A stretch of 64,000 bases of DNA. It comes from Anaeromyxobacteraceae bacterium. GTDB taxonomy: Bacteria; Myxococcota; Myxococcia; Myxococcales; Anaeromyxobacteraceae. The number at the start of each line of letters is the position of its first letter. Within the stretch, counting starts at the first letter, position 1. This document shows positions 15,118-64,000 of this stretch, piece by piece. The notes below the pieces were generated by a model. That model worked only from the letters and a program-made list of their open reading frames with translations. It made no database searches and was not told where the DNA came from. The position numbers and the translations under genes are program-made. The stretch is from NCBI GenBank assembly GCA_037443385.1, contig JBBIOL010000003.1, forward strand, positions 2,542 through 66,541, written 5' to 3'.

Positions 15118-15126
15118 GGTCGCCGC

Positions 15127-24488: not shown

Positions 24489-24521
24489 TCCGGGCCCGGC
24501 GCCTGCCTACAGTCACCCCGG

Positions 24522-38570: not shown

Positions 38571-38571
38571 G

Positions 38572-39216
38572 TCACTGCACCCCGGCCGGGCCCGGGACGC
38601 GGGACGCGCCGATCGCGTCCACGCGGGCCAGGATGAGCTTCGCGTCGGGGAAGCCGTTGTAGCGGGTCCAGGTCCCCGTGCGCGCGTCCCCCACGAGCAC
38701 CATGGGCGGGTGATCGGTGAAGTTCGGCGTGTAGGCGCCCATGTCGCGCAGCACCCGCTCGACCACGTCCTTCGAGCCGGTGAGCCAGACCCAGCCCGGT
38801 CGCGCCTTCCAGCGCCTCGCGTAGGCCTTGAGCTTCGCCGGGGTGTCGCGGGCCGGGTCGAGCGTCACCGAGACCAGGAGCACGTCCTTGCCGAGGTGGT
38901 CGCCGAGCCGGTCCTGCATCCGGGAGAGGATCCCGGAGAGCACCGGGCACACCGTGGTGCAGGTGGTGAAGACGAAGTCGGCGATGACCGTCCGGTCTCC
39001 GGAGAGGAGCTCGCGCAGCCGGACCGGCCGGCCGTCCTGGTCCACGAGCTCGACGTCGGGCACGGTGACGCGGGCCTCGGCCACCGGGGGCGCCTTCTCA
39101 GCCCGGGTCACCTCGGCGGGGTGGCAGGGCGGCGCGGCGTCCTCGGCGGCGCCGGCCTGCGGGAGGGCGAGGAGCGCGGCGGCGACGAGCGCGGCGCGGG
39201 TTCGGGAACGGTTCAT
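38572..39216 (-). CDS. SCO1/SenC-family copper chaperone, second paralog
   Basis: 214 aa from ATG 39216, with a signal peptide, CxxxC in FVFTTCTTVCPVL and a conserved His (FTDHPPMVLV). Confidence 0.85.
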   Translation of the reverse strand: MNRSRTRAALVAAALLALPQAGAAEDAAPPCHPAEVTRAEKAPPVAEARVTVPDVELVDQDGRPVRLRELLSGDRTVIADFVFTTCTTVCPVLSGILSRMQDRLGDHLGKDVLLVSVTLDPARDTPAKLKAYARRWKARPGWVWLTGSKDVVERVLRDMGAYTPNFTDHPPMVLVGDARTGTWTRYNGFPDAKLILARVDAIGASRVPGPAGVQ

Positions 39217-41153: not shown

Positions 41154-41179
41154 GTCGTTCGCCTCCCCGGAACGCACCG

Positions 41180-49565: not shown

Positions 49566-50954
49566 ATGCCCCAGGACCGAGATCCGGGAGAGGCCTCCCG
49601 CGCCCGCCACGAGCGGCTGGTGGCCGCCGACCACCGCCACCTCTGGCACCCGTTCACCCAGATGCAGGAGTGGATGGCCGAGGACCCGGTGGTCATCGAG
49701 TCGGGCGAGGGGTCGTACCTCGTCGATACGCTCGGGCGCCGCTATCTCGACGGGGTCTCGTCGCTCTGGTGCAACGTCCACGGCCACCGGGTGCCGGAGA
49801 TCGACCGGGCCGTGGTGGAGCAGCTCGGCCGCATCGCCCACACCACGCTGCTGGGCCTCGCCTCCACCGCCTCCATCGCCTGCGCGGAGGAGCTCGTCCG
49901 CGTCGCGCCGCCGGGCCTCACCCGGGTCTTCTTCTCCGACGCCGGAGCCACCGCCGCCGAGATCGCCCTCAAGATGGCCTACCAGCACTTCCAGCTCCGC
50001 GGGGACGTGGAGCGCAAGGAGTTCGTGGCCATCCGCGGCGGCTACCACGGCGACACCATCGGCTCGGTCTCGGTGGGAGGCATCGACCTCTTCCACCGGA
50101 TCTTCAAGCCGCTGCTCTTCCCGGTCCGGCACGCGCCGCAGCCCTACTGCTACCGCTGCCCGCTCGGGAAGGAGTGGCCGGGCTGCGCCATGGCCTGCGC
50201 GGACGAGGTCGAGCGGATCTTCGAGGCCCACGCCGGCAAGGTGGCGGCGCTGGTCCTCGAGCCGCTCGTCCAGGGCGCCGACGGGATGATCGTGCAACCC
50301 CCGGGCTACCTCCGGCGCATGCGCGAGATCTGCGACCGGCACGGCGCGCTGCTCGTCTGCGACGAGGTGGCCACCGGGTTCGGACGCACCGGGACGCTCT
50401 TCGCGGTGGAGCAGGAGGGGGTGCGCCCCGACATCCTCACCGTGGCGAAGGGGCTCACCGGGGGCTACCTGCCGCTCGCGGCGACGCTCACCACCGAGGA
50501 GGTCTTCGCGTCCTTCCTCGGGACCTTCGCGTCCCGGCGGACCTTCTTCCACGGCCACACCTACACCGGGAACCCGCTCGCCTGCGCGGCGGCGGTGGCC
50601 AGCCTGCGCCTCTTCCGCGATCGCGGGCTCGTGGCCCGGCTCCCGGTCATGGGCGAGACGCTGGCCGCCGCGCTGGCCCCGCTCGCCGACCACCCGCACG
50701 TGGGGGAGATCCGGCGCCGAGGCCTGATGGTGGGGATCGAGCTGGTCCGCGACCGGCGGACGAGGGAGGAGTACGCCTACGAGGTCCGCGCCGGCCACCG
50801 GGTCACGCTCGAGGCCCGCTCCCGCGGCGCCATCCTCCGGCCGCTCGGGAACGTGGTGGTGCTCATGCCCCCGCTCTGCATGACCGACGACGAGCTCGGG
50901 ACGCTGGGCCGGATCACCCGCGAGTCGATCGAGGCGGCCACCGCCCGGATCTGA
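49566..50954 (+). CDS. bioA: Adenosylmethionine-8-amino-7-oxononanoate aminotransferase
   Basis: It has HLWHPFTQM, class-III aminotransferase motifs, the PLP lysine in TVAKGLTGG and HGHTYTGNPLACAAA. ATG 49566 is preferred; the track starts at GTG 49557. Confidence 0.9.
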   Translation: MPQDRDPGEASRARHERLVAADHRHLWHPFTQMQEWMAEDPVVIESGEGSYLVDTLGRRYLDGVSSLWCNVHGHRVPEIDRAVVEQLGRIAHTTLLGLASTASIACAEELVRVAPPGLTRVFFSDAGATAAEIALKMAYQHFQLRGDVERKEFVAIRGGYHGDTIGSVSVGGIDLFHRIFKPLLFPVRHAPQPYCYRCPLGKEWPGCAMACADEVERIFEAHAGKVAALVLEPLVQGADGMIVQPPGYLRRMREICDRHGALLVCDEVATGFGRTGTLFAVEQEGVRPDILTVAKGLTGGYLPLAATLTTEEVFASFLGTFASRRTFFHGHTYTGNPLACAAAVASLRLFRDRGLVARLPVMGETLAAALAPLADHPHVGEIRRRGLMVGIELVRDRRTREEYAYEVRAGHRVTLEARSRGAILRPLGNVVVLMPPLCMTDDELGTLGRITRESIEAATARI

Positions 50955-51625
50955 TGCGCGGCCTCCTCGTCACCGGGACCGACACCGGCGTCGGGAAGAC
51001 CGAGGTCGCCTGCGCTCTCGTGGCCGGCGCGCGCGCGCGCGGGCTCGACGTGGGCGCCATGAAGCCGGCCCAGTCGGGCGTTGAGGACGGAGTGCCCACC
51101 GACGCCGACCGGCTCCGGGCCGCGGCGGGCGGGGGCGATCCACCCGGCCTGGTTTGCCCGTACGCGTTCCCGGCCCCGCTCGCTCCCGCCGTGGCGGCGC
51201 GCCTCGCCGGGGTGGAGATCGACCTCGACCACGTCCTCGCCTGCGCGCGCGACCTCTCCCGTCGCCACGCGGCGCTGGTGGTGGAGGGGGCCGGAGGCCT
51301 GCTCGTCCCCCTCACCGGGCGTCACACCTACGCCGACCTGGCGGTGGCGCTCGGCCTGCCGGTGCTGGTGGTGGCGCGCGCCGGGCTCGGCACGGTGAAC
51401 CACACCGCGCTCACCTGCGAGGCCCTGCGCGCCCGCGGCCTCGCCGTGGCCGGGGTGGTGCTGAACCGCGCCACCGCCGCGGCCGATCCGTCCGAGCCGC
51501 ACAACGCCGCCGAGATCGAGCGGCTCGCCGGGGTGCGCGTGCTCGACTCGCTGCCGTACGTGCCCGATGCGCCGCTCCGCGCCCGCCTGCTCGCGGATCG
51601 GCTCGCTGGCGCTGTCCAGTTTTGA
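50954..51625 (+). CDS. bioD: Dethiobiotin synthase
   Basis: 223 aa. The ATG overlaps the bioA stop (TGATG). It has the P-loop VTGTDTGVGKT, and EGAGGLLVP. Confidence 0.9.
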   Translation: MRGLLVTGTDTGVGKTEVACALVAGARARGLDVGAMKPAQSGVEDGVPTDADRLRAAAGGGDPPGLVCPYAFPAPLAPAVAARLAGVEIDLDHVLACARDLSRRHAALVVEGAGGLLVPLTGRHTYADLAVALGLPVLVVARAGLGTVNHTALTCEALRARGLAVAGVVLNRATAAADPSEPHNAAEIERLAGVRVLDSLPYVPDAPLRARLLADRLAGAVQF

Positions 51626-51679
51626 GCCCGCCGGGCCGGAAATTGGATCGATCCGGCGATCGATCCTAGAGATCGGTGC

Positions 51680-51949
51680 GTGGCCGACATCGTCGATCTC
51701 ACCCTCACCGCGGAGGCGCGGCGCTCGCTGCACCGCGTCCTCGACCAGCGCGGGATCGGATTCTTCCTGAAGCGGCGCCGGCGCGAGCCCGCCCGCCTCG
51801 ACCCCCGGCGGATCGCCTGGGTGGTGGAGGCGGCCGCGCGCCGCACCCGCCCGTCGCGCGACCCCGACGCCCTCTCCCGCACCCGCCGGGTGATCCGGCG
51901 CGAGCTCATCCGCCGGCTGGCCGAGTCGCTCGTGGAGGCCGGGCTGTAG
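51680..51949 (+). CDS. Small Arg-rich hypothetical protein (89 aa)
   Basis: GTG start and very high GC3 throughout. No family is recognised. Confidence 0.4.
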   Translation: MADIVDLTLTAEARRSLHRVLDQRGIGFFLKRRRREPARLDPRRIAWVVEAAARRTRPSRDPDALSRTRRVIRRELIRRLAESLVEAGL

Positions 51950-51961
51950 CGCCGCCCGGCC

Positions 51962-54592
51962 TCAGGGCTTGAAGCTCGTCACCCCCGACGTCGCCGACCC
52001 GCCCAGGCTGGACGTCACCGTGACCTGGAACGGAGCCGGCACGCCCACCAGCACCGCCGTGTAGTTGCCCTTGCCGAGGTTGGTCATCACCACCGGCGCC
52101 AGGTTGGGGACGGTGAGCGTGAGCACCGCCGCTCCGGAGGTGACGGACGAGCTCGCGTTCACCGTGAGCCGCTGCTTGGAGGTGCGGTACTCGACGAGCG
52201 TGAGGGTGACGAGGTCCGGACCGGCCTGGACCGTGACCGTGACCTGGGAGGGCGTCGAGGCGATGAGCCCGTTCGAGACGGTGAGCGCGAGCACCACCGT
52301 GGCGACGCCCGTGCCCGGGCCCACGTTGGGTGCGGTGAAGGTCGGGTGCGCCGTGGTCGCGCCGGAGAGGGTCACCTTGGGTCCGGACACCTGCGTCCAC
52401 GCGTAGGTGATGGGGAGCGCCTGGGGATCGAAGCTGGCCGAGCCGTCCAGGGTCACCGCCCCGCCGCTGCGCACGGCCTGGGCTGGCCCCGCCATCGCGG
52501 TCGGGGCGCCGGCGGCGGCCACGTTCACGGTCGCGAGCGCCGAGGAGCGGAGGCCCGCCGCGTTCGTGACCTGCAGCGAGAAGGCGAGCGACTGCGGGCT
52601 GGTCGCGGCGGGCGAGATGAACACCGGTCGGGAGGTGGTGGCGCCGGTGAGCGACACCGGCGGGCCGGAGGACTGGCTCCAGAAGTAGGTGAGGGCGAGC
52701 GGCGGCGAGTTCGGGTCCACCGAGGCCGATCCGTCGAGCGTGACCCGCGCGTTCGCTCCCACCGACTGGGGCAGGCCGGCGTCGGCCACCGGCGCGGAAG
52801 GGGCCGGTGGCGCCGGGTTCACCGTGACCGCGACCGTGGACGCGGTGGAGACCGCGAAGGCGTCCCGGACGGTGAGTGAGAAGACCAGCGTCGCGGGCGA
52901 CGCACCGGACGGGACGAGCGGCGCCGTGAACGATGGCCGGGCCACCGAGGCGCTGGAGAGGGTCACGCCGGTCCCGCTCGACTGCTGCCAGGCGTAGGTG
53001 AGCGACTGGCCGTTCGGGTCGGTGGAGAGGCTCCCGTCGAGCGTGACGAGCGCGCCGGAGGGGACGGTCTGGGGAAGGCCGGCGTTCGCGGTGGGTGGCA
53101 CGGGCGCGGCGCCGGAGCAGGAGGGCGCAGTCGGGACCGGGCTGCCCGGCCAGGGCGAGAGCTGGCCCACGATCCCGCCGGGGATGGGGCTGGGCCCGCC
53201 GCCCGCCCACGGGCCGGAGCCGTTCGCCAGGAAGGGGAACTCCTGGAAGTTGAGCGGCACGGGCGGACTGCCGGCGGCCAGGTTCTCCGGGAAGAGGTAC
53301 TCGGTGATGGGCGCGCGGTACTGGCCGGCGAGGAGCCCGTTCGCGGTGGTGACGGGCTGCGCCCCCACGATGCGGGCGCGCAGCTCGCGGGTGGCGGGCA
53401 GGAAGACGCCCACGGGTGGCATGGAGAGGACCTTGGTGGGCGGCCGGAAGCGCCAGCGCCCGAGCACGGCGCCCACCGGCGGTCCGGGGTCGACCGCCAC
53501 CGATCCCCACGAGCGCTCCGTCTGCGCGCCGGTGCAGGGATCCACGTCGATGCCGTAGAGATCCACGTTCCGCGTGGGGTCGGTGGTGAACCCCTCGAAG
53601 CGGGTGCGGACCGTGGCCTCCTGCGGCACGCCGGCGATGGGCGCGCCGCCCACGCCCAGGATGGTGACCTCGATGGCGATGTAGGCCGGGTCGGTGCCGT
53701 ACGCGGTGAAGATGCCCAGGTTGGCGACCAGGGAGTAGGCGGCCACGTAGGACGAGGCGACCGCGCCGGACGGCCCCGCGGTGGGAGACGCTCCGTCCTT
53801 CACCAGGATCCCGGAGTAGGTGACGAAGTCGCCGACCTCGACGGGCGCCGCGCGCCGGGCGTCGGGGAGCACGCCCAGCGCGGGGTCGGGCGTGTGGAAG
53901 ATGGACTGGTACGCCCCGGTGACCGGGTCACGCGGGCGGTTGCCCTGCGGGCAGAGGGCGTCGTCCAGGGCGGCCGGATCGGTGCGCGGCACGCAGAGCG
54001 GGTAGCCGGTCGTCGCGCGGACGGTGGGATTCTCCTCGTCGACGGTGAACCGGACGTCGGGGCTCGTGACCCGGCCGAACCGGCCGAGGGGATCGTTGAG
54101 CCGCACGCGCTGGCCGGTTCCCGGGTCGCCGATGACGCCCCCCACCCGGAGCTCGCCGGTGGCGTAGTCGATGAAGTTCACGAAGCCCTGGCCGGCGTTG
54201 AGCTCGTCCTGCGCGATCGAGACCAGGCCGGCGACGTACTGGTCGCCCACCCGGTTGCCGATCACGTGGACCTGCCAGGTGGTCGTGGGCGCGGGCAGGT
54301 CGGCCTGGGCCATCCCGGTCTGTCCCGGACCGTACGGCGGCGGGGCGAGCGCGAAGAGCTCCTGCCAGGTGAGCGCGGTGGCCGGCATGAGCACGATGGT
54401 GTTCCGCGGGACGGTGACGACCTGCCCGTGGACGGTGAGCGTGCCCCCGGCGAGCGAGTCGGTCCCGGAGAGGGTCGCCGCCTGGAGGATCCCGATCATG
54501 TCGAACGGCGAGACCGGCTCGGGCGGCGGGAGCGCCGGGGCGGGCGCCGCCGGGAGCGCGAGGGCGAGCAGGAGGACCATGCGTGCGTTCAT
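51962..54592 (-). CDS. Secreted 876-aa protein: unknown roughly 500-aa N-terminal domain + three PKD-like repeats + C-terminal Ig-like tail
   Basis: ATG 54592 with the signal peptide MNARMVLLLALALPAAPAPA. It is paralogous to the partial gene at 62567-64000 (shared segments TRN..LYG.D.DP.TG, GRWRFRPP, EY.FPEN, EYRT.KQRL.VNASSSVTS). Confidence 0.75.
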   Translation of the reverse strand: MNARMVLLLALALPAAPAPALPPPEPVSPFDMIGILQAATLSGTDSLAGGTLTVHGQVVTVPRNTIVLMPATALTWQELFALAPPPYGPGQTGMAQADLPAPTTTWQVHVIGNRVGDQYVAGLVSIAQDELNAGQGFVNFIDYATGELRVGGVIGDPGTGQRVRLNDPLGRFGRVTSPDVRFTVDEENPTVRATTGYPLCVPRTDPAALDDALCPQGNRPRDPVTGAYQSIFHTPDPALGVLPDARRAAPVEVGDFVTYSGILVKDGASPTAGPSGAVASSYVAAYSLVANLGIFTAYGTDPAYIAIEVTILGVGGAPIAGVPQEATVRTRFEGFTTDPTRNVDLYGIDVDPCTGAQTERSWGSVAVDPGPPVGAVLGRWRFRPPTKVLSMPPVGVFLPATRELRARIVGAQPVTTANGLLAGQYRAPITEYLFPENLAAGSPPVPLNFQEFPFLANGSGPWAGGGPSPIPGGIVGQLSPWPGSPVPTAPSCSGAAPVPPTANAGLPQTVPSGALVTLDGSLSTDPNGQSLTYAWQQSSGTGVTLSSASVARPSFTAPLVPSGASPATLVFSLTVRDAFAVSTASTVAVTVNPAPPAPSAPVADAGLPQSVGANARVTLDGSASVDPNSPPLALTYFWSQSSGPPVSLTGATTSRPVFISPAATSPQSLAFSLQVTNAAGLRSSALATVNVAAAGAPTAMAGPAQAVRSGGAVTLDGSASFDPQALPITYAWTQVSGPKVTLSGATTAHPTFTAPNVGPGTGVATVVLALTVSNGLIASTPSQVTVTVQAGPDLVTLTLVEYRTSKQRLTVNASSSVTSGAAVLTLTVPNLAPVVMTNLGKGNYTAVLVGVPAPFQVTVTSSLGGSATSGVTSFKP
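52217..53098 (-). repeat. Three tandem PKD-like coding repeats (96-102 aa each)
   Basis: The repeated pattern is AxAG.PQ.V..G..VTLDGS.S.DP....L.Y.W.Q.SGP.V.L....T..P.F.AP. Confidence 0.7.
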
Positions 54593-54773
54593 GCGCCGGA
54601 AGCTCCGTCCGGCCCCGGGGGGCACCCAGTCGCGGGAGGAAGGGACGCGGCGGTCTCCGGATGGGGCGCAAGGAAGAATTCGTCCGTAAATCGCGCGACA
54701 GGGCGACGGCGAGCCCGGATCCCAACCTCCCTCCCGGACGGCGCGAACCCACCCGTCCCACGGGGGGAAGCGA

Positions 54774-57194
54774 ATGACGACGACGAGGCTGACATGGCTC
54801 CGCGCCCGGACCGCGGCGGTCCTGGCGCTCGCGGCCGGAGGCGCCGCCGCCCAGACCACGGTGACGACCCCGCTCTCGCCCGCGGAGCTCCGCTTCGCGG
54901 CGCAGAACCTCGGCGTCACCTCGCTCGCCGCCGTGGCGGCGCCGGTGCCGCCCGAGCTCGCCCGCTTCGTGCAGGACCGTACGAGGCTGCTCCAGCTCGG
55001 CAAGGCGCTCTTCTGGGACCAGCAGCTCGGCAGCGACGGCCAGGCCTGCGCCTCGTGCCACTTCCACGCCGGCGCCGACAACCGGTCGAAAAACCAGGTG
55101 AACCCCGGCTTCCGCAGCACCGTGGTCCCCGGCGGGGACACGACCTTCGGCAACGGCACGGGCGCGCCCGGGCCGAACCCTCCCTTCGGGCCCAACCGGC
55201 AGCTCACCGCCGCCGATTTCCCCAAGCACCGCCTCGCGGACCCCTTCGACCGGACCTCCGCCGTTCTCTCCGACACGAACGACGTCGTCTCCTCGCAGGG
55301 CGTCTTCGGGGCCGTGCTCGTGAAGACCGGCATCCCCTACGACTCGGGCGTGCCGTCCTCGGGGTCCGGACCCGGGGCCACCTTCAACGTGAACGGCGTG
55401 CTCGTTCGCAGCGTGGAGCCTCGCAACACGCCCTCGGTGGTGAACGCGGTCTTCAACGACCGGAACTTCTGGGACTCGCGCGGGCGCCAGGAGTTCAACG
55501 GCGTCGATCCCATCGGCGTGCTCGACCCCGGCGCGCAGGTGGTCGAGATGGTCCGGCTCCCGGGGCTCAAGACCGGCGCCTTCCTCCATCCGGCGGGCAT
55601 CACGCTCGCCTCCACGGCCTCGCAGGCGGTCGGCCCGCCGACGAGCGACCTGGAGATGTCCTTCGGGGGGCGGCGCAATGCCGACCTGGGGCGGAAGATG
55701 CTCGCGGGCGCGCTCCGGCCGCTCGCGCTCCAGCTCGTCGCGGTCGACGACTCGGTGCTCGGCCCGCTCTCGGCCCAGAAGAAGAAGAAGTCCACTCCCG
55801 GGCTCACGACCACCTACCTCGATCTCGTGAAGGCGGCCTTCCTGCCCCAGTGGTGGGACGGGGGCAAGTGGGTGGTCGACCTCACGACCGGGACCCCGGT
55901 CCTTCGCCAGGCGTCGCAGACCGGCCCGAACGTCTTCACCGTCGCGGAGTACAACTTCACGCTCCTCTTCGGGCTCGCCATCCGCGAGTACGAGGCGACG
56001 CTCGTCGCCGACGCCTCCCCGTTCGACCGCTTCATGGAGGGGGACGGGTCGGCGCTCTCGCCCGCGGCCGTGCGCGGGCTGCAGACCTTCCTCGGGAAGG
56101 GCGGCTGCGTGCGCTGCCACGGAGGACCCGAGCTCACCAACGCCGGCGTGACGAGCATCCAGCGGCGCGGCCAGCTGGTCGCGCCCGGGACCGGCACCCA
56201 CGACCTCCTCGAGCGCATGGTGATGGGGGACGGCGGCGTCGCGGTCTACGACGCCGGTCACTACAACATCGGCGTGCGCCCCACGGCCGAGGACCTGGGG
56301 CTGGGTGCCTCGATCGGCCCGGCGAACCTGCCGCTCGCGAACGCGCGGCGGATGCAGGACTGCCTGCGTCGGCGCGTGGCGGCCGGTGACGGGCTCGCCG
56401 CCGCCAGCGCGGCCTGTGGCGTGCCCCGCATCCTGGCGAGGCCGGGCGAGGCGTCGCCGCTCGTTCGCCGCGCCGCCGCGCGGGTCGGGAACCCGCCCGA
56501 CGTGATCGCGCTCCTGGACCTGGCCGACGGGTTCCTCGGCCCGGACGACACGCTCCTCTTCACGAGCCCGTCGCCCATGGCGGCCGCCGGGTTGCTCGCG
56601 CAGGCCCGCGACCAGATCGCCGCGCTCGCCCCCGGGGACGGGGAGGTGGCACGCCTGCTCGCGTCCGCGACCAGCCTCCTGCCCGACCCGCTCGACCCGG
56701 GCCTCGACGAGGAGTTCCCGCTCGCGCCCCCGCTCACGCCCGACGAGCGGCTCGCCGTGGACGGTGCCTTCAAGGTGCCGGGCCTGCGGAACGTGGCGCT
56801 CACCGCCCCCTACTTCCACGACGGCGGCCAGGCCACGCTCGCCCAGGTGGTCGAGTTCTACAACCGGGGGGGCGACTTCCTCCTCGAGAACGCCGCGACC
56901 GCCGACCCGGTGATCCGGCCGCTCGGGCTCTCGGCCGACGAGCGATCCGACCTCGTCGCATTCCTGGAGTCGCTCACCGACGAGCGAACGCGGTGGGATC
57001 GCGCACCGTTCGACCACCCCGGCCTCTCGGTGCCGAACGGCGGCACGCCCGGCGTCCTCGACCTGGCGCTCTTCCCGGGCTACCGGGTCCTCGACGACCG
57101 CGTGTCCCTTCCCGCCGTCGGTGCGGGCGGCAGCGCGGTCCCCCTCGGCACGCCGCGGACGCCGTTCGCAACCTTCCTCGATCCGCTGCGATAG
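54774..57194 (+). CDS. Dihaem cytochrome c peroxidase family protein (CCP/MauG superfamily), 806 aa, exported
   Basis: It has a signal peptide and two CxxCH motifs: CASCH (55047-55061) and CVRCH (56106-56120). It also has FKVPGLRNVALTAPYFHDGGQATL and the C-terminal DLVAFLESLTD. Confidence 0.88.
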   Translation: MTTTRLTWLRARTAAVLALAAGGAAAQTTVTTPLSPAELRFAAQNLGVTSLAAVAAPVPPELARFVQDRTRLLQLGKALFWDQQLGSDGQACASCHFHAGADNRSKNQVNPGFRSTVVPGGDTTFGNGTGAPGPNPPFGPNRQLTAADFPKHRLADPFDRTSAVLSDTNDVVSSQGVFGAVLVKTGIPYDSGVPSSGSGPGATFNVNGVLVRSVEPRNTPSVVNAVFNDRNFWDSRGRQEFNGVDPIGVLDPGAQVVEMVRLPGLKTGAFLHPAGITLASTASQAVGPPTSDLEMSFGGRRNADLGRKMLAGALRPLALQLVAVDDSVLGPLSAQKKKKSTPGLTTTYLDLVKAAFLPQWWDGGKWVVDLTTGTPVLRQASQTGPNVFTVAEYNFTLLFGLAIREYEATLVADASPFDRFMEGDGSALSPAAVRGLQTFLGKGGCVRCHGGPELTNAGVTSIQRRGQLVAPGTGTHDLLERMVMGDGGVAVYDAGHYNIGVRPTAEDLGLGASIGPANLPLANARRMQDCLRRRVAAGDGLAAASAACGVPRILARPGEASPLVRRAAARVGNPPDVIALLDLADGFLGPDDTLLFTSPSPMAAAGLLAQARDQIAALAPGDGEVARLLASATSLLPDPLDPGLDEEFPLAPPLTPDERLAVDGAFKVPGLRNVALTAPYFHDGGQATLAQVVEFYNRGGDFLLENAATADPVIRPLGLSADERSDLVAFLESLTDERTRWDRAPFDHPGLSVPNGGTPGVLDLALFPGYRVLDDRVSLPAVGAGGSAVPLGTPRTPFATFLDPLR

Positions 57195-58181
57195 CTAGGG
57201 GTCGCCCGCCGCCGCGGCTGCGAGCCGCTCGAGCGCGCGATCGAGCGCGGACCCGGGCCCTCCCTCCACCGGCGAGGGCCCGGCGGCGCCGCCTCCCGGG
57301 TGCACCGTGCGGGTGGCCTCGACCCGGGAGGCGCCTTCCCCGGTCGAGATGCGGAAGAGGACCTCCTCCACGGCCGGCCGGGGCAGGTCGGAGACCAGTT
57401 CCACCTCGACGTGGTCCGGCCCCGCGTCGAGGATGGTGACCCGCCCGGCCGACCCCCCGCCGGTCCAGTGAAGGGTCGTCCCCGGGCCGGTGGCCCCGTC
57501 ACCGGGGGTCCGGGCGTGGACCAGCACGACGTCGGGAGGCAGCGCGGCGGGCGACCACCACCGCTCCCAGCGGCGCAGGTCGACGAGCCAGGGCAGGAGG
57601 TCGGCGGGGAGGGCCCGCACGCGGACGGCGTGCGTCTCGCGGCGTGCACCGGCGTCCAGGCCGGCCTCCGCCACCACCCGCAGACGCGCGAGCGCCAGAT
57701 CCAGGGACGCCGTGAGCGGCTCGTCTCCTCGCCCCAGGAGGCGGGAGACCCGGTCCGGGAGGGAGAGCTCGCCCGACTGGGCCCACGAGACCCGGAGGCC
57801 GTCTCCATCGCGCGAGAGGCGCACCTCCACGTCGGCGAGGCCGGCGTACGGCGCGAGGGTCTCCCGCTCGAGCTCGACCCGCCCGGACGCGACCTCGAGC
57901 ACGGTGAGCCGCCCGCGCCGCGTGGCGCTCGACCAGTGGTAGCTCGAGCCAGGGCCCGACGCCGGTCCGCCGTAGTCGCGCCGCGCTCCGGGGTCGCCGG
58001 CCTCCTCCGGCCACCAGGCGAGCCAGCGGCGGGGCTCGGCGATCTCCGCCAGGACCGAGCGCGAATCCGCGTCGACGTGGATCGATCGCTCTACCCGGTA
58101 CCGCCCCGGCGAGACCGCGACGGCCGTGGCGGCCGCCGTCGCCCCGGCGAGGGCTCCCCAGGCGAGCCTGCTCCGCCGCAC
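57195..58181 (-). CDS. N-terminally anchored protein with two SRPBCC (START/polyketide-cyclase-like) domains
   Basis: The start is set at GTG 58181, 13 nt after the sigma-gene stop, by alignment with the paralog at 61526-62470 (TM helix, then YRVERS...). W.AWWP and GRGRLTV-type motifs occur twice. Confidence 0.65.
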   Translation of the reverse strand: MRRSRLAWGALAGATAAATAVAVSPGRYRVERSIHVDADSRSVLAEIAEPRRWLAWWPEEAGDPGARRDYGGPASGPGSSYHWSSATRRGRLTVLEVASGRVELERETLAPYAGLADVEVRLSRDGDGLRVSWAQSGELSLPDRVSRLLGRGDEPLTASLDLALARLRVVAEAGLDAGARRETHAVRVRALPADLLPWLVDLRRWERWWSPAALPPDVVLVHARTPGDGATGPGTTLHWTGGGSAGRVTILDAGPDHVEVELVSDLPRPAVEEVLFRISTGEGASRVEATRTVHPGGGAAGPSPVEGGPGSALDRALERLAAAAAGDP

Positions 58182-58194
58182 GCCATCGACCCGG

Positions 58195-59172
58195 TCAGCC
58201 GGCCTGGCGGAGCCGCCGCTGGGCGATCTGCCGCCGGACGATCTGCCGCCGGATGGGGACGAGCCGCGTGGCCTCGCACGCCCCGCCCCGGCCGCAGCCG
58301 GCGAGGCAGGCGCGCAGCTTCCGCCGCGCCCGCTCCTCGAGCTGCCGCGCCCGCTCGCGGCCACAACCCAGCCGCTCGCCCACCGCCTGCAGCGTGAGCG
58401 GGGGCTCGCTCATCACCCGGAGCTCGATGACCAGCCGCTCCCGCTCGTCCAGGCAGGAGAGCGCGGCCCGCACGCGACGGCAGTCGATGGCGCTCTCCTC
58501 GGCGATGCTGAGCTGGTCGTCCTGGCGGGCCTCCCCGGAGGGGATGACCTCCTGGACCGGCGCGCCGCCCTGGGTCGCCGGCGCGTCGAGCGAGACGTCC
58601 CGGGAGTCGAGCCGGCGCCGCATCTCCTCCACCGCGGCCGGCTTCACCCCCAGGCAACGGGCCAGGAGCGGGACCATCCGCGCCGCGGCCTCGTCGGTGG
58701 AGTCGCCGAGCTCGTGGGCCAGCGCGGCCTCGGTCCGGTGCAGGGAGTAGAAGAGCTTCCGCTGCCCGACCGTCGTGCCGACCCGCACCATCGACCAGGA
58801 GCGCAGGATGTGGTTCAGGATGCGCGCCCGGATCCAGGTGACGGCGTAGGAGATGAGGCGGACCTTCCGGTCGGGGTCGAACCGCTCGACCGCCTGGACG
58901 AGCCCGAGGTTCCCCTCCTGGACGAGGTCGGCCAGCCGGACGTTTCCGGAGGCGTACTCCCGGGCCACCCGGACGACGAAGCGCAGGTTTCCGCGGACGA
59001 GCCGCTGCGCGATGCGCGGGTCCCGGGTCCGGCGGTAGGCCTCTGCGAGCGCGAGCTCCTCCTCCGGCGTGAGCAGCGGGATCTGCCGGATCTGGGAAAG
59101 GTAGAGGTCGAACGGGTCGACCGCGCGCGACGCGGTGGCGGTCATGGCGAACCCGGGACGGGATTCGTGCAC
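58195..59172 (-). CDS. Sigma-70-family RNA polymerase sigma factor, RpoH-like, with a Cys/Arg-rich C-terminal extension
   Basis: It has regions 2-4 (LVQEGNLGLVQAVERFDP, ISYAVTWIRA, LDERERLVIELR...LQAVGERLG.GRERARQLE) and an RpoH-box-like GQRKLFYSL. The start is GTG 59172 or ATG 59145. Confidence 0.85.
   Translation of the reverse strand: MHESRPGFAMTATASRAVDPFDLYLSQIRQIPLLTPEEELALAEAYRRTRDPRIAQRLVRGNLRFVVRVAREYASGNVRLADLVQEGNLGLVQAVERFDPDRKVRLISYAVTWIRARILNHILRSWSMVRVGTTVGQRKLFYSLHRTEAALAHELGDSTDEAAARMVPLLARCLGVKPAAVEEMRRRLDSRDVSLDAPATQGGAPVQEVIPSGEARQDDQLSIAEESAIDCRRVRAALSCLDERERLVIELRVMSEPPLTLQAVGERLGCGRERARQLEERARRKLRACLAGCGRGGACEATRLVPIRRQIVRRQIAQRRLRQAG
58225..58254. repeat. Tandem 15-bp duplication GATCTGCCGCCGGAC/GATCTGCCGCCGGAT inside the 3' end of the sigma gene
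   Basis: Read directly from the sequence. It encodes the duplicated RRQIV/RRQIA peptide. Confidence 0.9.
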
Positions 59173-59361
59173 GGTGGGCCTGCGGTTGCGGGCATTGCCG
59201 ACATGGGTCTCCCCCTGCGGCCCGCGTTTCCCGGGGATCCGGGTGCGACAAATCGCCGCAGGCCTGACCCCCCAGATCTGAACATTTGACGTGCATCAAG
59301 CCAGTACCGTAAATGAGCGAAAAATAATTGTATTTGTTGTCCCTGGAACGGGGGATGCGCT

Positions 59362-59398
59362 CCGCCCCTGGACGCCGGGTCCGGCGCGCCAGGGGCGG
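59362..59398 (-). terminator. Perfect 10-bp inverted repeat (CCGCCCCTGG ... CCAGGGGCGG, 17-nt loop) immediately after the stop of the PKD lipoprotein gene
   Basis: Read directly from the sequence. It is terminator-like but has no adjacent U-tract; a T-run lies about 45 nt downstream on the minus strand. Confidence 0.45.
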
Positions 59399-59402
59399 GG
59401 TC

Positions 59403-61469
59403 TCACCTCGCGTAGGTGAAGCGCTTCACGAGCCCGCAGAAGCCGCCGGACTCGCCGTCGACCACCCACGTGCCCGGCCAGCGCAGGTCCATGAGGTAGC
59501 CACCGGCGGTGGTCGCGGCCACCGGCACGTCCAGGCTCACCGGGCCGGGCGGGATGTTCTGCGGCGAGCCCGACGCAACGAGGGCGCGGGTGGCGGGCTC
59601 GTAGCCGTACAGGATCGCGCGCGGGTAGATCCCGATCATCGGCGCGATGCCCACGTTCAGCGTCAGGTCGGCCGTGGTGGAGAGGTGAAGCGGCGCCGCC
59701 GGTGGCGCGGCCGGGACGAGCACCGATCCCATGGCGGGGCTGGAGGTGACGACCACGTCGGTGGGGCAGGGGAAGACGAGCGTGCGCTGCTCGAGCTTCC
59801 CGTTCACCGTGGCCGTGGCGACGAGGACGATCCGGCCGCCGCTGCCGACGACCGGCTGCGGACCGGCCGGGTCGACGCGGAAGTACGCGCCGTTCAGGGC
59901 CGGATCGCGGAGCAGCGCGACGCCGTTCAGCGTCACCACCGTGCCGGCCGGCGGGATGAAGTTGCCGCTGCTCACCGATCCGAACGTGACCACGACGAGC
60001 CCCTGCACCGTGGGCTCCCCGAGCGCCGGATCGACGACGTAGAGCCCCTGCGCCGCCCCCATCTGCCAGCGGTTGCTGCCCGATCCGCCGGTCGGGGGCG
60101 GGTTCGGGTCGAACGGCGCCGGCGCGGGGGTCCCCGGCGGCGGTGGGAAGCTCGCGCCGGCGGGGTTCACCGTGACGGTCACCGTCGCCGGGGCCGACGC
60201 GGCGCTCGCGTCGGCGACCACGAGCGCGAAGACCAGCGTGGCCGGAGGGGAGCCCGAGGCCACCGCCGGCGCGGTGAAGACCGGGCGCGCGGCGACCGTG
60301 GACGAGAGCGCGACGGTCGGGCCGGAGAGCTGGGACCAGGCGAAGGAGATGGCCTGCCCGTCGGGGTCGGCGCTCCGGCTGCCGTCGAGCGTGACCGACG
60401 CGCCGGAGGCGACCGCCTGCGCGGCGCCGGCGTCGGCGATCGGGGCGGGGTTCGCCGCCGGCGGTGCGCTCACCGTCACCGAGACGGTGGCCGGCGCCGA
60501 CGCTCCGCCCGCGCCCGTCACCACGAGCGAGAACCCGAGCACCACCGGGGCCTGCCCGGCGCCGAGCACCGGCGCCACGAACGACGGGTGGACGGTCGCG
60601 GCACCGGCCAGGGTCACCGGCGGTCCGGCCGACTGGCTCCAGGCGTAGGAGAGGGGCGACGCCGCTGGATCGCTGCTCCCGCTGCCGTCGAGCGTGACCG
60701 TGGCGCCCGAGGCGACCGCCTGGTCCGGGCCGGCGCTCGCGAGCGGCGGGAGGACGGGCGGTGGCGGCGGGGGTGGGCCCGCACCGGGCAGGACGGTGAT
60801 CGACACCGTGGCGGGAACGGAGGTCCCGCCCGTGCTCGTGACCACGAGCGAGAAGGCGAGCACGGCCGCCGGCTGCCCGGAGGCGACCGCGGGAGCGGCG
60901 AAGGAGGGGTGGGCCGTGGCGCCGCCGGAGAGCGCCACCGCCGACCCGGCGACCTGCACCCACTGGAAGAGGAGCGGGAGCCCCGCCGGGTCGGTGCTGG
61001 CCGAGCCGTCGAGCGCGACGGTCGCGCCCGAGTCCACGGTCCGGTCGGCGCCGGCGTTCGCCACCGGCGGAAGGACCGCCGCCGGTGCCGGCGGGTTCAC
61101 GGTCACGGTCTCGGCCGCCGGGTCCGAGGTCCCGTTCTGGCTCGTCACCACCAGGGAGAAGGAGAGGGAGGCAGCCGGCTGGCCGGCGGCCACGGTCGGA
61201 GCGGTGAAGGTCGGTCGTGCGCTGGCCGCGTCGGAGAGCGCGACCGCCGGCCCGGCCGACTGGGTCCACCGGTAGGAGACGGGCATGCCCGCGGGGTCGC
61301 TGCTTCCGCTTCCGTCGAGCGCCACCCGGCTGCCCGAGTCGACGGCGAGATTCGGCCCGACGCGCGCCACGGGAGGCTGGGAGCCGCCGCCGCCGGTGGC
61401 GGGCGGGGTGGATCCCCCGCAGGCGAGGCACAGGATCGGGACGAGGAGCGCGAGGTGGAACGGCCTCAT
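59403..61469 (-). CDS. Exported (probable lipo)protein with four PKD-like repeats and an unknown roughly 250-aa C-terminal domain
   Basis: 688 aa from ATG 61469 (GGAGG upstream), with the signal peptide MRPFHLALLVPILCLACGG. It has four repeats of ..VALDGSGSSDP.....SY.W.QSAGP.V.L... Confidence 0.75.
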   Translation of the reverse strand: MRPFHLALLVPILCLACGGSTPPATGGGGSQPPVARVGPNLAVDSGSRVALDGSGSSDPAGMPVSYRWTQSAGPAVALSDAASARPTFTAPTVAAGQPAASLSFSLVVTSQNGTSDPAAETVTVNPPAPAAVLPPVANAGADRTVDSGATVALDGSASTDPAGLPLLFQWVQVAGSAVALSGGATAHPSFAAPAVASGQPAAVLAFSLVVTSTGGTSVPATVSITVLPGAGPPPPPPPVLPPLASAGPDQAVASGATVTLDGSGSSDPAASPLSYAWSQSAGPPVTLAGAATVHPSFVAPVLGAGQAPVVLGFSLVVTGAGGASAPATVSVTVSAPPAANPAPIADAGAAQAVASGASVTLDGSRSADPDGQAISFAWSQLSGPTVALSSTVAARPVFTAPAVASGSPPATLVFALVVADASAASAPATVTVTVNPAGASFPPPPGTPAPAPFDPNPPPTGGSGSNRWQMGAAQGLYVVDPALGEPTVQGLVVVTFGSVSSGNFIPPAGTVVTLNGVALLRDPALNGAYFRVDPAGPQPVVGSGGRIVLVATATVNGKLEQRTLVFPCPTDVVVTSSPAMGSVLVPAAPPAAPLHLSTTADLTLNVGIAPMIGIYPRAILYGYEPATRALVASGSPQNIPPGPVSLDVPVAATTAGGYLMDLRWPGTWVVDGESGGFCGLVKRFTYAR
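60162..61376 (-). repeat. Four tandem PKD-like coding repeats (about 100-aa period)
   Basis: These are residues about 32-436 of the lipoprotein. The repeats are mutually similar at both the protein and DNA level. Confidence 0.7.
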
Positions 61470-61525
61470 GGAGGACCTCCGGGAACTCGAATGGGCGTGG
61501 CGAAGCGTCGCTCCGGGTGCCGGGG

Positions 61526-62470
61526 TCACGGGAGCCTCCCCTCGGCGAGCGACTTCAGGCGGGAGAGCCCCGCGTCGAGCTGGCTCGCCTCCAGGCCCTG
61601 GTCGCCGGATGCGGTCCAGGTGACCCGCGTGTGGTCCCCGTCGGGATGGAGCTGGAAGCGGAGGTCGTGGGTCCGGGGCGAGGGCCCCCCCGTGCCCAGC
61701 TCGAGCTCGAGGTCGACCGAGTCCGGGCCGAGCGCCACGACCGTCATGCGCGCCTGGCGCTCGCCGTCCGGCCAGTAGAGGCTCGCGCCCACGCCCGACG
61801 CCGCGCCTCCGGGCCGGGCGGACCCCTTGGCAGTGCCAGCCCAGGGAGACCACGCCCACCATCCGGCGGGGTCGGCGATGCGGTCCCGGAGCGCGCCGGC
61901 CGGGGCCGCCACCACCGTGGTCGCCTCGGCCCGGCGGATCTCGGTCCGCGGGAGCGCCTCGGTGGCGGAGCGGAACCGATCGAGCTGCTGCTCCAGCGTG
62001 CGGACCAGGGCGTGGCGCCGCGAGAGGACCCACAGCGCCCGGTCGAGCGGGCCGTTCTCTCCGAGCACCGTCCAGGTGAGCCGGGAGCCCGAGCCGGACG
62101 GGACGACCCGCAGCTCGAGGTCGGACGCGGAGCGGCGGGGCGCCTCGGTCTCCAGCTCCAGGTCGAGCCGCCCGGGGCCGATGCCCACCACGGTCATGCG
62201 CCCCCTTCCGACCGCCGGGCCGCCCGACCAGTAGTAGGTCGCCCCCGGGCTGCCCGGCCTGCCGCCGTAGCTCCGGGAGATGCGTGGGTCACGCGACTCC
62301 GTCGGTGTCCACGCCACCCAGCGCTGCAGGTCGGAGAGCTGCTCCAGGACCGTCTCGGGAGGCGCCGCCACCAGGACCGACCGCTCGACGCGGTAACCGG
62401 CCGGTACGGCCAGGACGCCGGCGGCGCCCAGGAGGAGGGGTACGGCCACTGCGAGCGCGAACTTCCACAT
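61526..62470 (-). CDS. N-terminally anchored protein with two SRPBCC domains (paralog of 57195-58181)
   Basis: 314 aa. A TM helix is followed by YRVERSVLVAAPPETVLEQLSDLQRWVAWTP...GRGRMTVV... and a second copy WWAWSPW...ARMTVVALG. Confidence 0.7.
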   Translation of the reverse strand: MWKFALAVAVPLLLGAAGVLAVPAGYRVERSVLVAAPPETVLEQLSDLQRWVAWTPTESRDPRISRSYGGRPGSPGATYYWSGGPAVGRGRMTVVGIGPGRLDLELETEAPRRSASDLELRVVPSGSGSRLTWTVLGENGPLDRALWVLSRRHALVRTLEQQLDRFRSATEALPRTEIRRAEATTVVAAPAGALRDRIADPAGWWAWSPWAGTAKGSARPGGAASGVGASLYWPDGERQARMTVVALGPDSVDLELELGTGGPSPRTHDLRFQLHPDGDHTRVTWTASGDQGLEASQLDAGLSRLKSLAEGRLP

Positions 62471-62524
62471 GACGGCTCCCGGGGCGGGCGAAGGACACGG
62501 GTGCGGTTCGAGGACGACGGGACG

Positions 62525-62551
62525 CCGGGGGGTGGAGGGAGCACCCCCCGG
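62525..62551 (-). terminator. Perfect 8-bp GC hairpin (CCGGGGGG-11 nt-CCCCCCGG) 16 nt after the stop of the partial PKD-family gene
   Basis: Read directly from the sequence. There is no U-tract. Confidence 0.35.
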
Positions 62552-62566
62552 CGGCCGCGGCCGGGC

Positions 62567-64000
62567 CTACTGACGGATCTTGTCCAGTCCGTGCGGTGGG
62601 CTCGTGCCGTTCAGGTTCGACTTCACCGTGAGGGGCGTGGCCTGGCAGGGCGTCGCGAAGGCGCCGCTCGGCGGGTTGCAGGCGGGCGGCGGAGCGCCCA
62701 CCAGCGTGATGACGTAGAGGCCGCCGCCGTTGTTGGTGAGCGTGTTCCCGAGCGCGGTCGGGTCGAAGGTGCCGCTGGGAGGACACGCCACCTGCCCGGC
62801 CACGGTCTGGCAGGCGTAGGGCTGCAGCGTGAGCACCACGTTCGGGCTGGTCACCGACGAGCTGGCGTTCACGATGAGCCGCTGCTTGCCGGTGCGGTAC
62901 TCGGTGGCGGTGATGGCCACGTTGTCCGGGACCGGCTTCACGGTGACGGTGGTAGTCGCCGGCGCGGAGGTCGCTCCGCCGGTGTTGGTCGCGGTGACCG
63001 ACACCGTGACCGTGGAGGGCGTGACCTGGCCGATGGGCAGGGTCGGGGCGGTGAAGGTGACCTGCGCCGTGCAGGTGTTCGCGCTCACCACGCCGCAGGA
63101 GGCGCTTCCCACCTTGAGGTTCAGGAGCGCCGGGGTGCCGGTCTGGGTGACCGCGAAGGTGAGCTTCTGCGGGGGGGCGTTCGGATCGGTGGCCGAGACG
63201 GTGAAGGCCGCGTTGATGGCCCCGGAGAAGACCGCGACCGGGCCGATGGGCGCCACGGTGGGCGTGCCGGCGGCGTTCACGGTCACCGAGGTGGAGGCGG
63301 TGCTGGTCCCGCAGGCGTTCGTCACCGTGAGCGACACCGTCACCGGCGGCGTCGCGCCGAGGGCCGAGTAGGTGGCCACGGCCAGGTTGGCGTTCGCGAT
63401 CGACCCGCTGCTCGCCGTCCAGGCGTAGGTGAACGGCGCCGTGCCGCTCGCGCTACCGGTCAGGTTGACGGTGCCGCCGGAGGCGACGGTGTACGGGCCC
63501 CCGGGGATGGCGGTGGGCGCCACGCAGGCCGGCGTGGGCACCACGTTGCTCGGCCAGGGGTCGAGCACCTTCGCGAGCGTGCCGCCCGAGGAGACGTAGC
63601 CGCCCTTGGTGAGGAAGTCGATGCTGTTGAAGTTGTTCTCGACGATGGGAGCGCCGGGGATGTTCTCCGGGAAGATGTACTCGCCGATGGGTGCGTGGTA
63701 CTGGCCGTAGAAGATCCCGTTCGCCGACGTCTTCGCGGTGACGAGCCCTGGCACCTGCGACTGCTGTCCCTCGATCACCGCCCGCACCTCGCGGGCCGGC
63801 GGCAGGAAGGTGCCCGCCGGGGGCGGCGTGCAGGACTTCTGGTCGGCGACGGTGGCCGTGCAGGGCGGCCGGAAGCGCCAGCGCCCCTTCACCGCGCCGG
63901 TCGGAGCGCCAGGATCCACGCCGATGGTGCCCCAGTCGCGATCGGTGGTGTTGCCCGTGGCCGGATCGAGGTCCACGCCGTAGAGGTGGATGTTGCGGGT
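62567..64000 (-). CDS. Secreted PKD/Ig-repeat protein, paralog of 51962-54592; 5' end lies outside the window
   Basis: The frame stays open to position 64000 (…TRNIHLYGVDLDPATGN…). The track's 'M' at 63976 is an internal GTG. Confidence 0.7.
   Translation of the reverse strand, partial: TRNIHLYGVDLDPATGNTTDRDWGTIGVDPGAPTGAVKGRWRFRPPCTATVADQKSCTPPPAGTFLPPAREVRAVIEGQQSQVPGLVTAKTSANGIFYGQYHAPIGEYIFPENIPGAPIVENNFNSIDFLTKGGYVSSGGTLAKVLDPWPSNVVPTPACVAPTAIPGGPYTVASGGTVNLTGSASGTAPFTYAWTASSGSIANANLAVATYSALGATPPVTVSLTVTNACGTSTASTSVTVNAAGTPTVAPIGPVAVFSGAINAAFTVSATDPNAPPQKLTFAVTQTGTPALLNLKVGSASCGVVSANTCTAQVTFTAPTLPIGQVTPSTVTVSVTATNTGGATSAPATTTVTVKPVPDNVAITATEYRTGKQRLIVNASSSVTSPNVVLTLQPYACQTVAGQVACPPSGTFDPTALGNTLTNNGGGLYVITLVGAPPPACNPPSGAFATPCQATPLTVKSNLNGTSPPHGLDKIRQ

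Follow-up and report, generated by a model that had tools for sequence, protein, structure and literature searches.

In a 64,000-nt stretch of an Anaeromyxobacteraceae genome (contig JBBIOL010000003.1; the whole stretch, at its full length, is referred to here as the window), a gene cluster that begins at position 51962 and runs off the window end was analysed. It comprises a divergent gene pair, encoding a large secreted protein with PKD repeats (PKD_A) and a di-haem enzyme of the cytochrome c peroxidase (CCP)/MauG superfamily (below, the CCP), followed on the reverse strand by genes for two anchored double-SRPBCC proteins (SRP1 and SRP2), an RpoH-like sigma factor, a PKD-repeat lipoprotein and a paralogue of PKD_A (PKD_B). 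The pairing of the CCP with the N-terminal domain of PKD_A (PKDA_N; residues 25-495, positions 53108-54520, ~470 aa) is a conserved core that recurs across phyla and, as judged by sequence comparison, the only part of the cluster conserved beyond the window's lineage. An earlier note, made from the DNA sequence, had described the region as a self-contained, sigma-controlled extracytoplasmic system built from five protein families. The feature is real and more than a chance arrangement, and that interpretation is partly supported: the array is co-conserved in a single lineage, where alone its sigma factor was seen, while only the CCP and the PKD_A/PKD_B family extend further, and the five families are not one inseparable system.

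The CCP family is large, with 5974 matches at E<=1e-10 and 578 confirmed loci in species-representative genomes. Neighbourhoods were surveyed for the best 80 of these loci, most of the metagenome contigs being short, by searching them with the window proteins (tblastn and custom hidden Markov models, HMMs) and scoring co-occurrence within +/-10 kb. PKDA_N was shown to adjoin the CCP gene in ten of the 80 loci (L004, L006, L016, L017, L029, L037, L056, L076, L078 and, weakly, L012), in many cases directly beside it and in the same orientation, and these loci represent Myxococcota, Acidobacteriota, Methylomirabilota, Betaproteobacteria and Alphaproteobacteria. A partner family apparently present in 61 loci, obtained by all-against-all clustering of open reading frames (ORFs), proved to be an artefact of antisense ORFs inside the CCP gene, and the HMM search reduced it to the ten loci above. 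When contexts were anchored on PKDA_N instead, a CCP gene was found next to it in all four (Cupriavidus sp. 2TAF22, Paraburkholderia caribensis, P. largidicola and an unplaced 638-kb contig). All four share a module made up of two PKDA_N paralogues, a CCP of 686-726 aa, a multicopper oxidase (MCO) of ~740 aa and a SCO1/SenC-cytochrome c fusion, to which the Burkholderiales loci add a protein of 161-163 aa, a DUF5666 protein and type II secretion genes directly upstream. One or two PKDA_N copies together with a CCP, a ~740-aa MCO and SCO1/SenC were thereby observed in Burkholderiales, Methylomirabilis, a Methylotenera metagenome-assembled genome (MAG; L017), a Hyphomicrobium MAG (L078) and the unplaced contig. 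Over all loci compared, MCO and SCO1 genes accompany the CCP gene in 13, eight of which also encode PKDA_N. The divergent arrangement of the PKD_A and CCP genes was retained in all six relatives for which upstream sequence was available. A literature search returned no description of this gene cluster, and in P. largidicola, where genes for a TonB-dependent receptor and YcnI follow the module, all of its genes are annotated as 'hypothetical protein'. The corresponding unannotated operons in Cupriavidus, Paraburkholderia and the unplaced contig are located at 2611-17731 (L082), 10001-22306 (L083), 13935-26129 (L098) and 7164-18584 (L102).

The partner domain itself is new to the domain databases searched, as residues 1-495 of PKD_A produced no Pfam or NCBIfam match. 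A word-indexed search with PKDA_N returned 560 matches at 50-55% identity (Cupriavidus, Paraburkholderia, Herbaspirillum, Acidobacteriia, Methylomirabilis and others), and 318 clusters (50% identity) were obtained at E<=1e-30 among 1.84 billion representatives. Its AlphaFold2 model, based on a 117-sequence alignment, is all-beta (pLDDT 92.8, pTM 0.91) and matched no PDB structure at E<=1e-3 using Foldseek; the equivalent search with full-length PKD_A was uninformative because generic Ig and cadherin repeats dominate. The family alignment exhibited invariant tryptophans (Trp76 and Trp380; GRWRFRPP), a near-invariant cysteine pair (Cys200/Cys214) and numerous conserved positions occupied by Asp, Asn, Arg, Gly or Pro. 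The cysteine pair is kept in PKD_B (RPPCTATVADQKSCTPP; 62567-63997) and lost in PKD_A (RPPTKVLSMPP; 53400-53480), and the two paralogues are for this reason not equivalent. Multiplication of PKDA_N genes recurs in several lineages; an Anaeromyxobacteraceae MAG (L004, 7328-20780), for example, carries three paralogues around a single CCP gene, without sigma or SRPBCC genes. A neighbour-joining (NJ) tree of PKD_A/PKD_B paralogues, built from 150 columns, was too weak to date the duplications. A relationship between PKDA_N and the Burkholderiales DUF5666 protein was ruled out (hhalign probability 0.4%).

The CCP matches Pfam CCP_MauG (PF03150) at 68.0 bits (cutoff 25.6) and carries two haem-binding motifs, CASCH at residues 92-96 and CVRCH at residues 445-449. 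A phmmer comparison with the PDB yielded four short matching blocks only, to canonical CCPs, BthA and MauG, separated by ~110-200 unmatched residues and including two large insertions of roughly 160 aa each; it is these long insertions between aligned blocks that account for its length of 806 aa, compared with CCPs of 300-390 aa. Residues 659-703 align without gaps to residues 257-301 of MauG, and Tyr696 therefore corresponds to MauG Tyr294, which serves as axial ligand to the six-coordinate haem. A tyrosine is likewise present at this position in the alignment with BthA, and a methionine in that with the CCP of Nitrosomonas europaea. Tyr696, Trp233 (the tryptophan of an FWD block) and both CXXCH motifs were invariant in all 14 homologues compared, which derive from Myxococcota, Beta-proteobacteria and Acidobacteriota. 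As read from these alignments, the second haem is of the MauG/BthA type, with His/Tyr ligation, and follows the MauG-like pattern rather than that of peroxide-detoxifying bacterial CCPs. The latter are characterized by His/Met ligation, with the methionine in a ...VETMGR block, and by a compact length of ~300-350 aa; in the window protein Tyr696 replaces the methionine, and the length is 806 aa.

The CCP does not belong to MauG proper either, as it scored 89.5 bits against the MauG equivalog (TIGR03791; cutoff 443.85). Its top NCBIfam match was MbnH (TIGR04039), at 118.1 bits against a cutoff of 362.85, and it also fell well under the cutoff of the His-Xaa-Ser-system equivalog. Being well below all three cutoffs, the CCP is regarded as a member of a distinct sub-family of the superfamily. 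RoxA-like_Cyt-c (PF21419) gave no match to the window CCP at E<=0.01 and weak matches in some homologues, and RoxA was not among the PDB sequence matches of the CCP. No mau (methylamine dehydrogenase) genes were observed beside the CCP gene or in related loci, the neighbours being PKD, SRPBCC and sigma genes. An exact look-up retrieved no identical protein for the window CCP. Among other members of the family, CCP-SCO1/SenC fusions of 1300-1372 aa were noted (P0052, P0054 and P0055), as was an N-terminal Big_1 domain (PF02369) on large CCPs of ~950-990 aa (P0017-P0019, P0027 and others). In Verrucomicrobiaceae loci L028, L032-L034 and L051, the CCP gene is followed by a gene for a giant protein of ~3260 aa and preceded by one for a conserved ~385-aa protein without a Pfam match, so that this enzyme family also has a second, distinct type of conserved neighbourhood.

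MauG-type di-haem enzymes carry out unusual protein oxidation at long range; MauG matures the tryptophan tryptophylquinone cofactor, and MbnH converts a tryptophan of the copper protein MbnP to kynurenine. To our knowledge, few partner systems of this type exist, namely MauG/pre-methylamine dehydrogenase and MbnH/MbnP, with BthA having no known substrate. The CCP resembles MauG and BthA (6E1C) in its PF03150 domain, its two c-type haems, the FWD tryptophan block and the tyrosine at the axial position of the second haem, but is more than twice their size, contains two large insertions and has a new all-beta/PKD family as its partner. The gene for BthA lies downstream of one for a putative extracellular phosphatase (PMC6405878), and the CCP is, similarly, encoded next to a secreted partner protein. 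MbnH provides a further parallel, in that a MauG-like enzyme adjoins a periplasmic partner in a copper-related context, although PKDA_N, unlike MbnP, has no conserved copper-binding histidine; in addition, none of the seven proteins of the cluster, PKD_A and PKD_B included, produced an MbnP-family NCBIfam match.

At the level of gene content, the Burkholderiales/L102 module resembles the mtoX and iox clusters in combining a secreted or periplasmic copper oxidase with SCO1/SenC. The mtoX operon, of the order mtoX-SCO1/SenC-mauG, also has a MauG-like enzyme in common with the module. The methanethiol oxidase mtoX cluster is a known analogue (PMC5739008). The iox cluster, flanked by gsp genes, encodes an iodide-oxidising MCO together with SCO1/SenC proteins and subunits of unknown nature (PMC9415286), so that uncharacterised accessory proteins and type II secretion genes are common to it and the module. 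The window cluster differs from both in having no MCO or SCO1 gene beside the PKD_A/CCP pair.

The genes and other features of the cluster in the window are as follows.

51962-54592, reverse strand: PKD_A, 876 aa, with a signal-peptide-like N-terminus, PKDA_N, three K319L-like PKD repeats and a C-terminal beta domain
54593-54773: divergent PKD_A/CCP intergenic region, holding the conserved footprint TCGCGCGACAGG
54774-57194, forward strand: di-haem CCP/MauG-superfamily enzyme, 806 aa (Pfam CCP_MauG, two CXXCH motifs)
57195-58181, reverse strand: SRP1, N-terminally anchored double-SRPBCC protein (Polyketide_cyc2), 328 aa (Pfam)
58195-59145, reverse strand: RpoH-like (group 3) sigma factor, 316 aa (Pfam/NCBIfam)
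59270-59345, reverse strand: AT-rich island upstream of the sigma gene, with the conserved block ACGGTACTGGCTTGAT (four-contig alignment)
59403-61469, reverse strand: PKD lipoprotein, 688 aa, with four K319L-like PKD repeats and a C-terminal domain of ~250 aa
61526-62470, reverse strand: SRP2, second anchored double-SRPBCC protein, 314 aa (Pfam)
62567 to beyond 64000, reverse strand: PKD_B, partial, the C-terminal 477 aa of a PKD_A paralogue (BLASTP), exceeding the window end

Because the G+C content of the window is 71-78%, genes were called from third-position GC and stop-to-stop frames, after which start codons were chosen, the starts being provisional; export signals were judged from sequence reading alone. 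The order, strands and families of the earlier note agree with this gene calling and with Pfam and NCBIfam, which recovered every family it had named. The CCP gene (54774-57194, forward) was confirmed to be divergent from that of PKD_A (51962-54592, reverse) and to meet the array stop to stop exactly as described, its TAG (57192-57194) directly abutting the reverse-strand CTA (57195-57197). Two families are indeed present twice: PKD_A and PKD_B proved to be true paralogues (BLASTP, 402 aligned positions at 40% identity, E = 9e-56), and SRP1 and SRP2 are 35% identical. All products other than the sigma factor whose N-terminus lies within the window appear to be exported or anchored, as was proposed, with hydrophobic N-termini in PKD_A, the CCP, SRP1 and SRP2 and a lipobox-like ...ILCLAC|GG in the PKD lipoprotein, where the L037 orthologues carry canonical LALAC and LAGAC. 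The MCO operon, placed about 4 kb away, lies at a distance of 4.2 kb.

The similarity between PKD_A and PKD_B takes in the last part of the N-domain, the PKD repeats and a domain at the C-terminus (~90 aa, beta, in PKD_A). K319L-like PKD repeats were identified in PKD_A (119.7 bits, three repeats at residues ~495-790) and in the lipoprotein (189.3 bits, four repeats), and PKD_B, although a homologue of PKD_A, matched PKD_4 below threshold (24 bits against 27). The lipoprotein, the reading frame of which was fixed by third-position GC, has only the PKD repeats in common with PKD_A and PKD_B, and its C-terminal domain had no PDB sequence match at E<=1 and no recognisable relatives. Polyketide_cyc2 was matched over two stretches each in SRP1 (31.7 bits) and SRP2 (71.7 bits; cutoff 27.4). 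Residues 1-26 of SRP2 are strongly hydrophobic, and a PDB sequence search with this protein gave nothing useful.

Around the core pair, the sigma factor, the SRPBCC proteins and the lipoprotein C-terminal domain form a much narrower layer, which among the 80 CCP loci was found in L037 only. Including shorter contigs, this shell was observed, complete or as far as the contig reaches, in seven contigs. L037, a delta-proteobacterial MAG with a CCP of 65% identity and many frameshifts, preserves the complete order, namely PKD_A (reverse), CCP (forward), SRP1, sigma and lipoprotein (all reverse), an extra lipoprotein-like gene, SRP2 (reverse) and PKD_B (reverse); its lipoprotein is 74% identical to that of the window and present in an extra copy, and its PKD_B orthologue extends into a full PKDA_N-type N-domain. 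The same eight genes as in L037 were found on a 17-kb JGI contig (P0248) with a sigma factor of 62% identity, and full synteny is thus retained in both despite SRPBCC identities of only 36-45%. Partial arrays were found on four further contigs: a CCP gene convergent with SRPBCC, sigma and one further gene (P0003); sigma and SRPBCC genes convergent with a CCP gene (L088; CCP 78% identity); PKD_A and CCP genes, divergent, with the sigma gene convergent on the latter and SRP1 missing (L099); and sigma and SRPBCC genes with an extracytoplasmic function (ECF) sigma gene upstream in place of the lipoprotein gene (L089). SRP1 orthologues were recognised in L037, L088 and L089, and an SRP2 orthologue in L037.

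The synteny of the five families, which the earlier note had proposed as a check, holds in full in L037 and the P0248 contig and in part in four more, but does not extend to four CCP orthologues without sigma and SRPBCC genes, L087 (73%), L085 (65%), L086 (63%) and L100 (65%), which keep a divergent PKD_A gene wherever upstream DNA exists. In an NJ tree of the CCPs (310 columns; a distance method, and indicative only), the five placeable array contigs formed one sub-clade, with these four orthologues outside it. The orthologues of the sigma factor constitute a group of 14 clusters at 60-71% identity, followed by a step to 58% or less, and every recovered context of this group includes the cluster; the one 58% paralogue examined was located elsewhere, in the company of bipA, a gene for a ribosomal protein and two-component genes. 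Given this synteny, the CCP sub-clade and the sigma contexts, the shell appears to have formed a single time around a PKD_A/CCP pair that predates it, and to have been retained since.

The sigma factor contains Sigma70 regions 1.2, 2 and 4 and passed the sigma-32 subfamily model NF005143 (245.3 bits; cutoff 241), but remained under the cutoff of the proteobacterial rpoH equivalog TIGR02392 (252.8 bits against 323.1). Its motif QRKLFYSLH agrees at six of nine positions with the RpoH box consensus, Q(R/K)(K/R)LFFNLR. RpoH-like sigma factors of Myxococcus xanthus include SigB, SigC and SigE. The window protein resembles RpoH and these myxobacterial factors in being of group 3, in its regions 1.2, 2 and 4 and in passing the sigma-32 subfamily model; it differs from RpoH in falling under the proteobacterial cutoff, in belonging to a narrow, cluster-tied orthologue group and in being followed by an SRPBCC gene. 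In the window, 13 nt separate the sigma and SRPBCC genes; the corresponding gaps on two JGI contigs measure 15 and 19 nt, and the sigma and SRP1 genes are, as far as gene layout indicates, almost certainly co-transcribed.

Upstream of the sigma gene, the block ACGGTACTGGCTTGAT in the AT-rich island was shown by alignment to be conserved in the window, L037, L088 and L089, and the island (59270-59345) is the likely promoter region of the sigma gene; the block itself gave no convincing match to the sigma-32 or the sigma-54 consensus. In the leader of the sigma gene an inverted repeat, CTGCGGCG-ATTT-GTCGCA (59230-59262, reverse strand), has a perfect counterpart, CTGCGGC-GGATT-GCCGCAG, at ~14440-14470 of L037, and is not conserved in L088 and L089; it could represent an operator or a leader hairpin. 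The predicted fold of the leader is not unusual (z = -0.49) and supports no RNA element, and an Rfam scan gave no match. A second conserved element, the footprint TCGCGCGACAGG (54691-54702), lies ~75 bp upstream of the CCP start and recurs in L099, L037 and, with one change (TCACGCGACAGG), L087. Within the window it is not enriched, with five matches at one mismatch or fewer against 3.0 expected. A further sequence, CCCCATCC, facing PKD_A was discarded as a promoter, as it is not conserved in L037, and a scan of 51500-64000 for sigma-70 promoters and terminators found nothing. As no footprint is common to the upstream regions, it is synteny that renders control of the neighbouring genes by the sigma factor plausible.

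Of the readings considered, the most likely is that a Tyr-ligated di-haem enzyme carries out oxidative chemistry that is directed at a protein or assisted by a partner; we put its chances at about even. The region would then represent an extracytoplasmic protein-oxidising module with a lineage-specific regulatory and accessory shell. The CCP would react with H2O2, passing as MauG does into a high-valent state of the bis-Fe(IV) type, and would subsequently oxidise a macromolecular partner over distance, rather than simply detoxify peroxide. PKDA_N would be the most likely target or docking partner, with Trp76 and Trp380 as candidate sites; alternatively, the PKD proteins may present an extracellular substrate to the CCP. 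Because the pair adjoins MCO and SCO1 genes elsewhere, with type II secretion genes alongside in the Burkholderiales loci, the module may belong to secreted or cell-surface copper/haem oxidase chemistry, for which metal oxidation (e.g. of Mn), phenolic oxidation and matrix cross-linking are candidates. The CCP-SCO1 fusions and, in P. largidicola, the nearby YcnI and TonB-dependent receptor genes add to this copper link. In the window's lineage, an envelope or hydrophobic-ligand signal, perhaps one involving the SRPBCC proteins, would act through the sigma factor to drive the cluster.

Several observations weigh against this reading. PKDA_N was absent within 10 kb of the CCP gene in 70 of the 80 loci, and the CCP family is therefore not confined to this partner. 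The PKDA_N alignment contains no invariant His or Met, and without a conserved His the domain is not an obvious copper site. In the window's clade, neither a ~740-aa MCO gene nor a SCO1-cytochrome c gene lies beside the PKD_A/CCP pair. On the regulatory side, no promoter motif was found that is common to the sigma, CCP/PKD_A and other upstream regions, and SRP1, which has no anti-sigma Pfam match, cannot be a classical anti-sigma factor, as only ~5 residues precede its hydrophobic segment. Lastly, the shell could owe its conservation to gene order inherited within a young clade and not to selection.

A more ambitious form of the proposal, which we judge rather unlikely as a whole, is that PKDA_N would be the dedicated partner or substrate of a new giant MauG-like subfamily and would form, together with MCO and SCO1-cytochrome c proteins, a widespread and undescribed secreted oxidase machine, perhaps producing a protein-derived cofactor or cross-link, to which one myxobacterial lineage would have added a private RpoH-type sigma factor and an SRPBCC sensor or accessory. 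In either form, the CCP and PKDA_N constitute a concrete candidate enzyme-substrate pair for MauG-type oxidation, and direct testing of this pair is feasible in cultivable Paraburkholderia and Cupriavidus, which carry the module. With a manganese-oxidase-type operon next door, the module may also be relevant to the oxidation of metals or polymers outside the cell, and a private RpoH-like sigma factor would exemplify a group 3 factor dedicated to one envelope system.

The alternative that survives best, and which we rate as possible though not favoured, is that the region is a mosaic of neighbours without a functional relationship (the PKD_A/CCP pair, the bicistron of sigma and SRPBCC genes, and the genes for the lipoprotein, SRP2 and PKD_B), in which the sigma factor is one of several general RpoH-like factors that myxobacteria use in stress or development and the synteny reflects recent common ancestry. 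CCP orthologues of 63-73% identity do have other neighbours, including a Ser/Thr kinase gene, a lactonase/NrsF-ECF set, CsgG and a histidine kinase gene; the sigma and SRPBCC genes of L089 lie behind an ECF sigma gene without the lipoprotein gene, and L099 lacks SRP1. The confinement of the conserved footprint to the region upstream of the CCP gene, not shared by other promoters, and the many RpoH-like paralogues in Anaeromyxobacteraceae and Myxococcales point in the same direction. However, the order of eight genes on both strands is kept in three contigs, at SRPBCC identities of 36-45% and sigma identities of 62-63%, the sigma gene converges on the CCP gene even where SRP1 is missing (L099), and all recovered contexts of the sigma orthologues include this cluster. 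Moreover, the gene for PKD_B, itself paralogous to the partner of the CCP, is found beyond the sigma array, which is thereby bracketed by genes of the core family.

Partner-assisted oxidation by the CCP also has to be set against a role defined by the neighbouring operon. This seven-gene operon (34567-47761, reverse strand; genome ~74% G+C) encodes an MCO of 2193 aa and a beta-propeller protein, two members of the SCO1/SenC family, one hypothetical protein, a periplasmic-binding protein that carries a cytochrome c domain, and a SurA-like peptidyl-prolyl isomerase. Compared by gene content, it has the same genes in the same order as the mnxG manganese-oxidase operon of Pseudomonas putida GB-1 (PMC11409713, Table 4), with one extra hypothetical gene; genes for a CCP, PKDA_N, SRPBCC proteins or a sigma factor are absent from the GB-1 operon. 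The cluster could accordingly be an accessory to a putative MnxG-type oxidase 4 kb away, removing or using H2O2 or templating surface oxide, with this giant oxidase in place of the ~740-aa MCO. We regard this as improbable, even though the operon content matches and the CCP family recurs beside MCO and SCO1 genes. The 4.2 kb between the PKD_A stop (51962) and the MCO start (47761) is occupied by an LssY_C gene and the housekeeping genes bioA and bioD, all on the other strand, so that the MCO operon and the PKD_A/CCP cluster do not form one operon. In L037, the flank of PKD_A is not syntenic with the window and gave no MCO, bioA or LssY match within 7 kb. Similarly, tblastn with the window MCO, the LssY_C protein and bioA returned no meaningful matches in the CCP-linked loci, and the likeness of this MCO to MnxG derives from gene content. 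A functional link between the MCO operon and the CCP cluster is nonetheless possible by analogy with the recurrent CCP-MCO-SCO1 linkage elsewhere.

Plain periplasmic peroxide defence, in which the CCP detoxifies H2O2 under a stress sigma factor and the PKD proteins are unrelated adhesins, is very improbable: homologues are named 'cytochrome c peroxidase' in their source records, the top PDB sequence matches include canonical CCPs and RpoH-type sigma factors are stress sigma factors, but an invariant Tyr takes the place of Met at the axial position of the second haem, the protein has 806 aa and two large insertions against the canonical 300-350 aa, and across phyla the CCP pairs with PKDA_N, MCO and SCO1. 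The generic role in oxidative (peroxide) stress that the earlier note had listed among the options is therefore not favoured, as the haem ligands are MauG-like and the core accompanies MCO and SCO1/SenC genes outside the lineage, which argues for copper/haem oxidative chemistry instead.

The DNA between the MCO operon and the cluster encodes, on the forward strand, an LssY_C lipoprotein-like protein (48257-49516; PF14067, E = 2.7e-47), the gene of which is divergent from the giant MCO gene. A 107-aa ORF without a Pfam match but with coding-like third-position GC occupies 51626-51949, directly behind a segment (49566-51625, forward strand) carrying bioA (class III aminotransferase) and then a bioD-like dethiobiotin synthetase gene (AAA_26).

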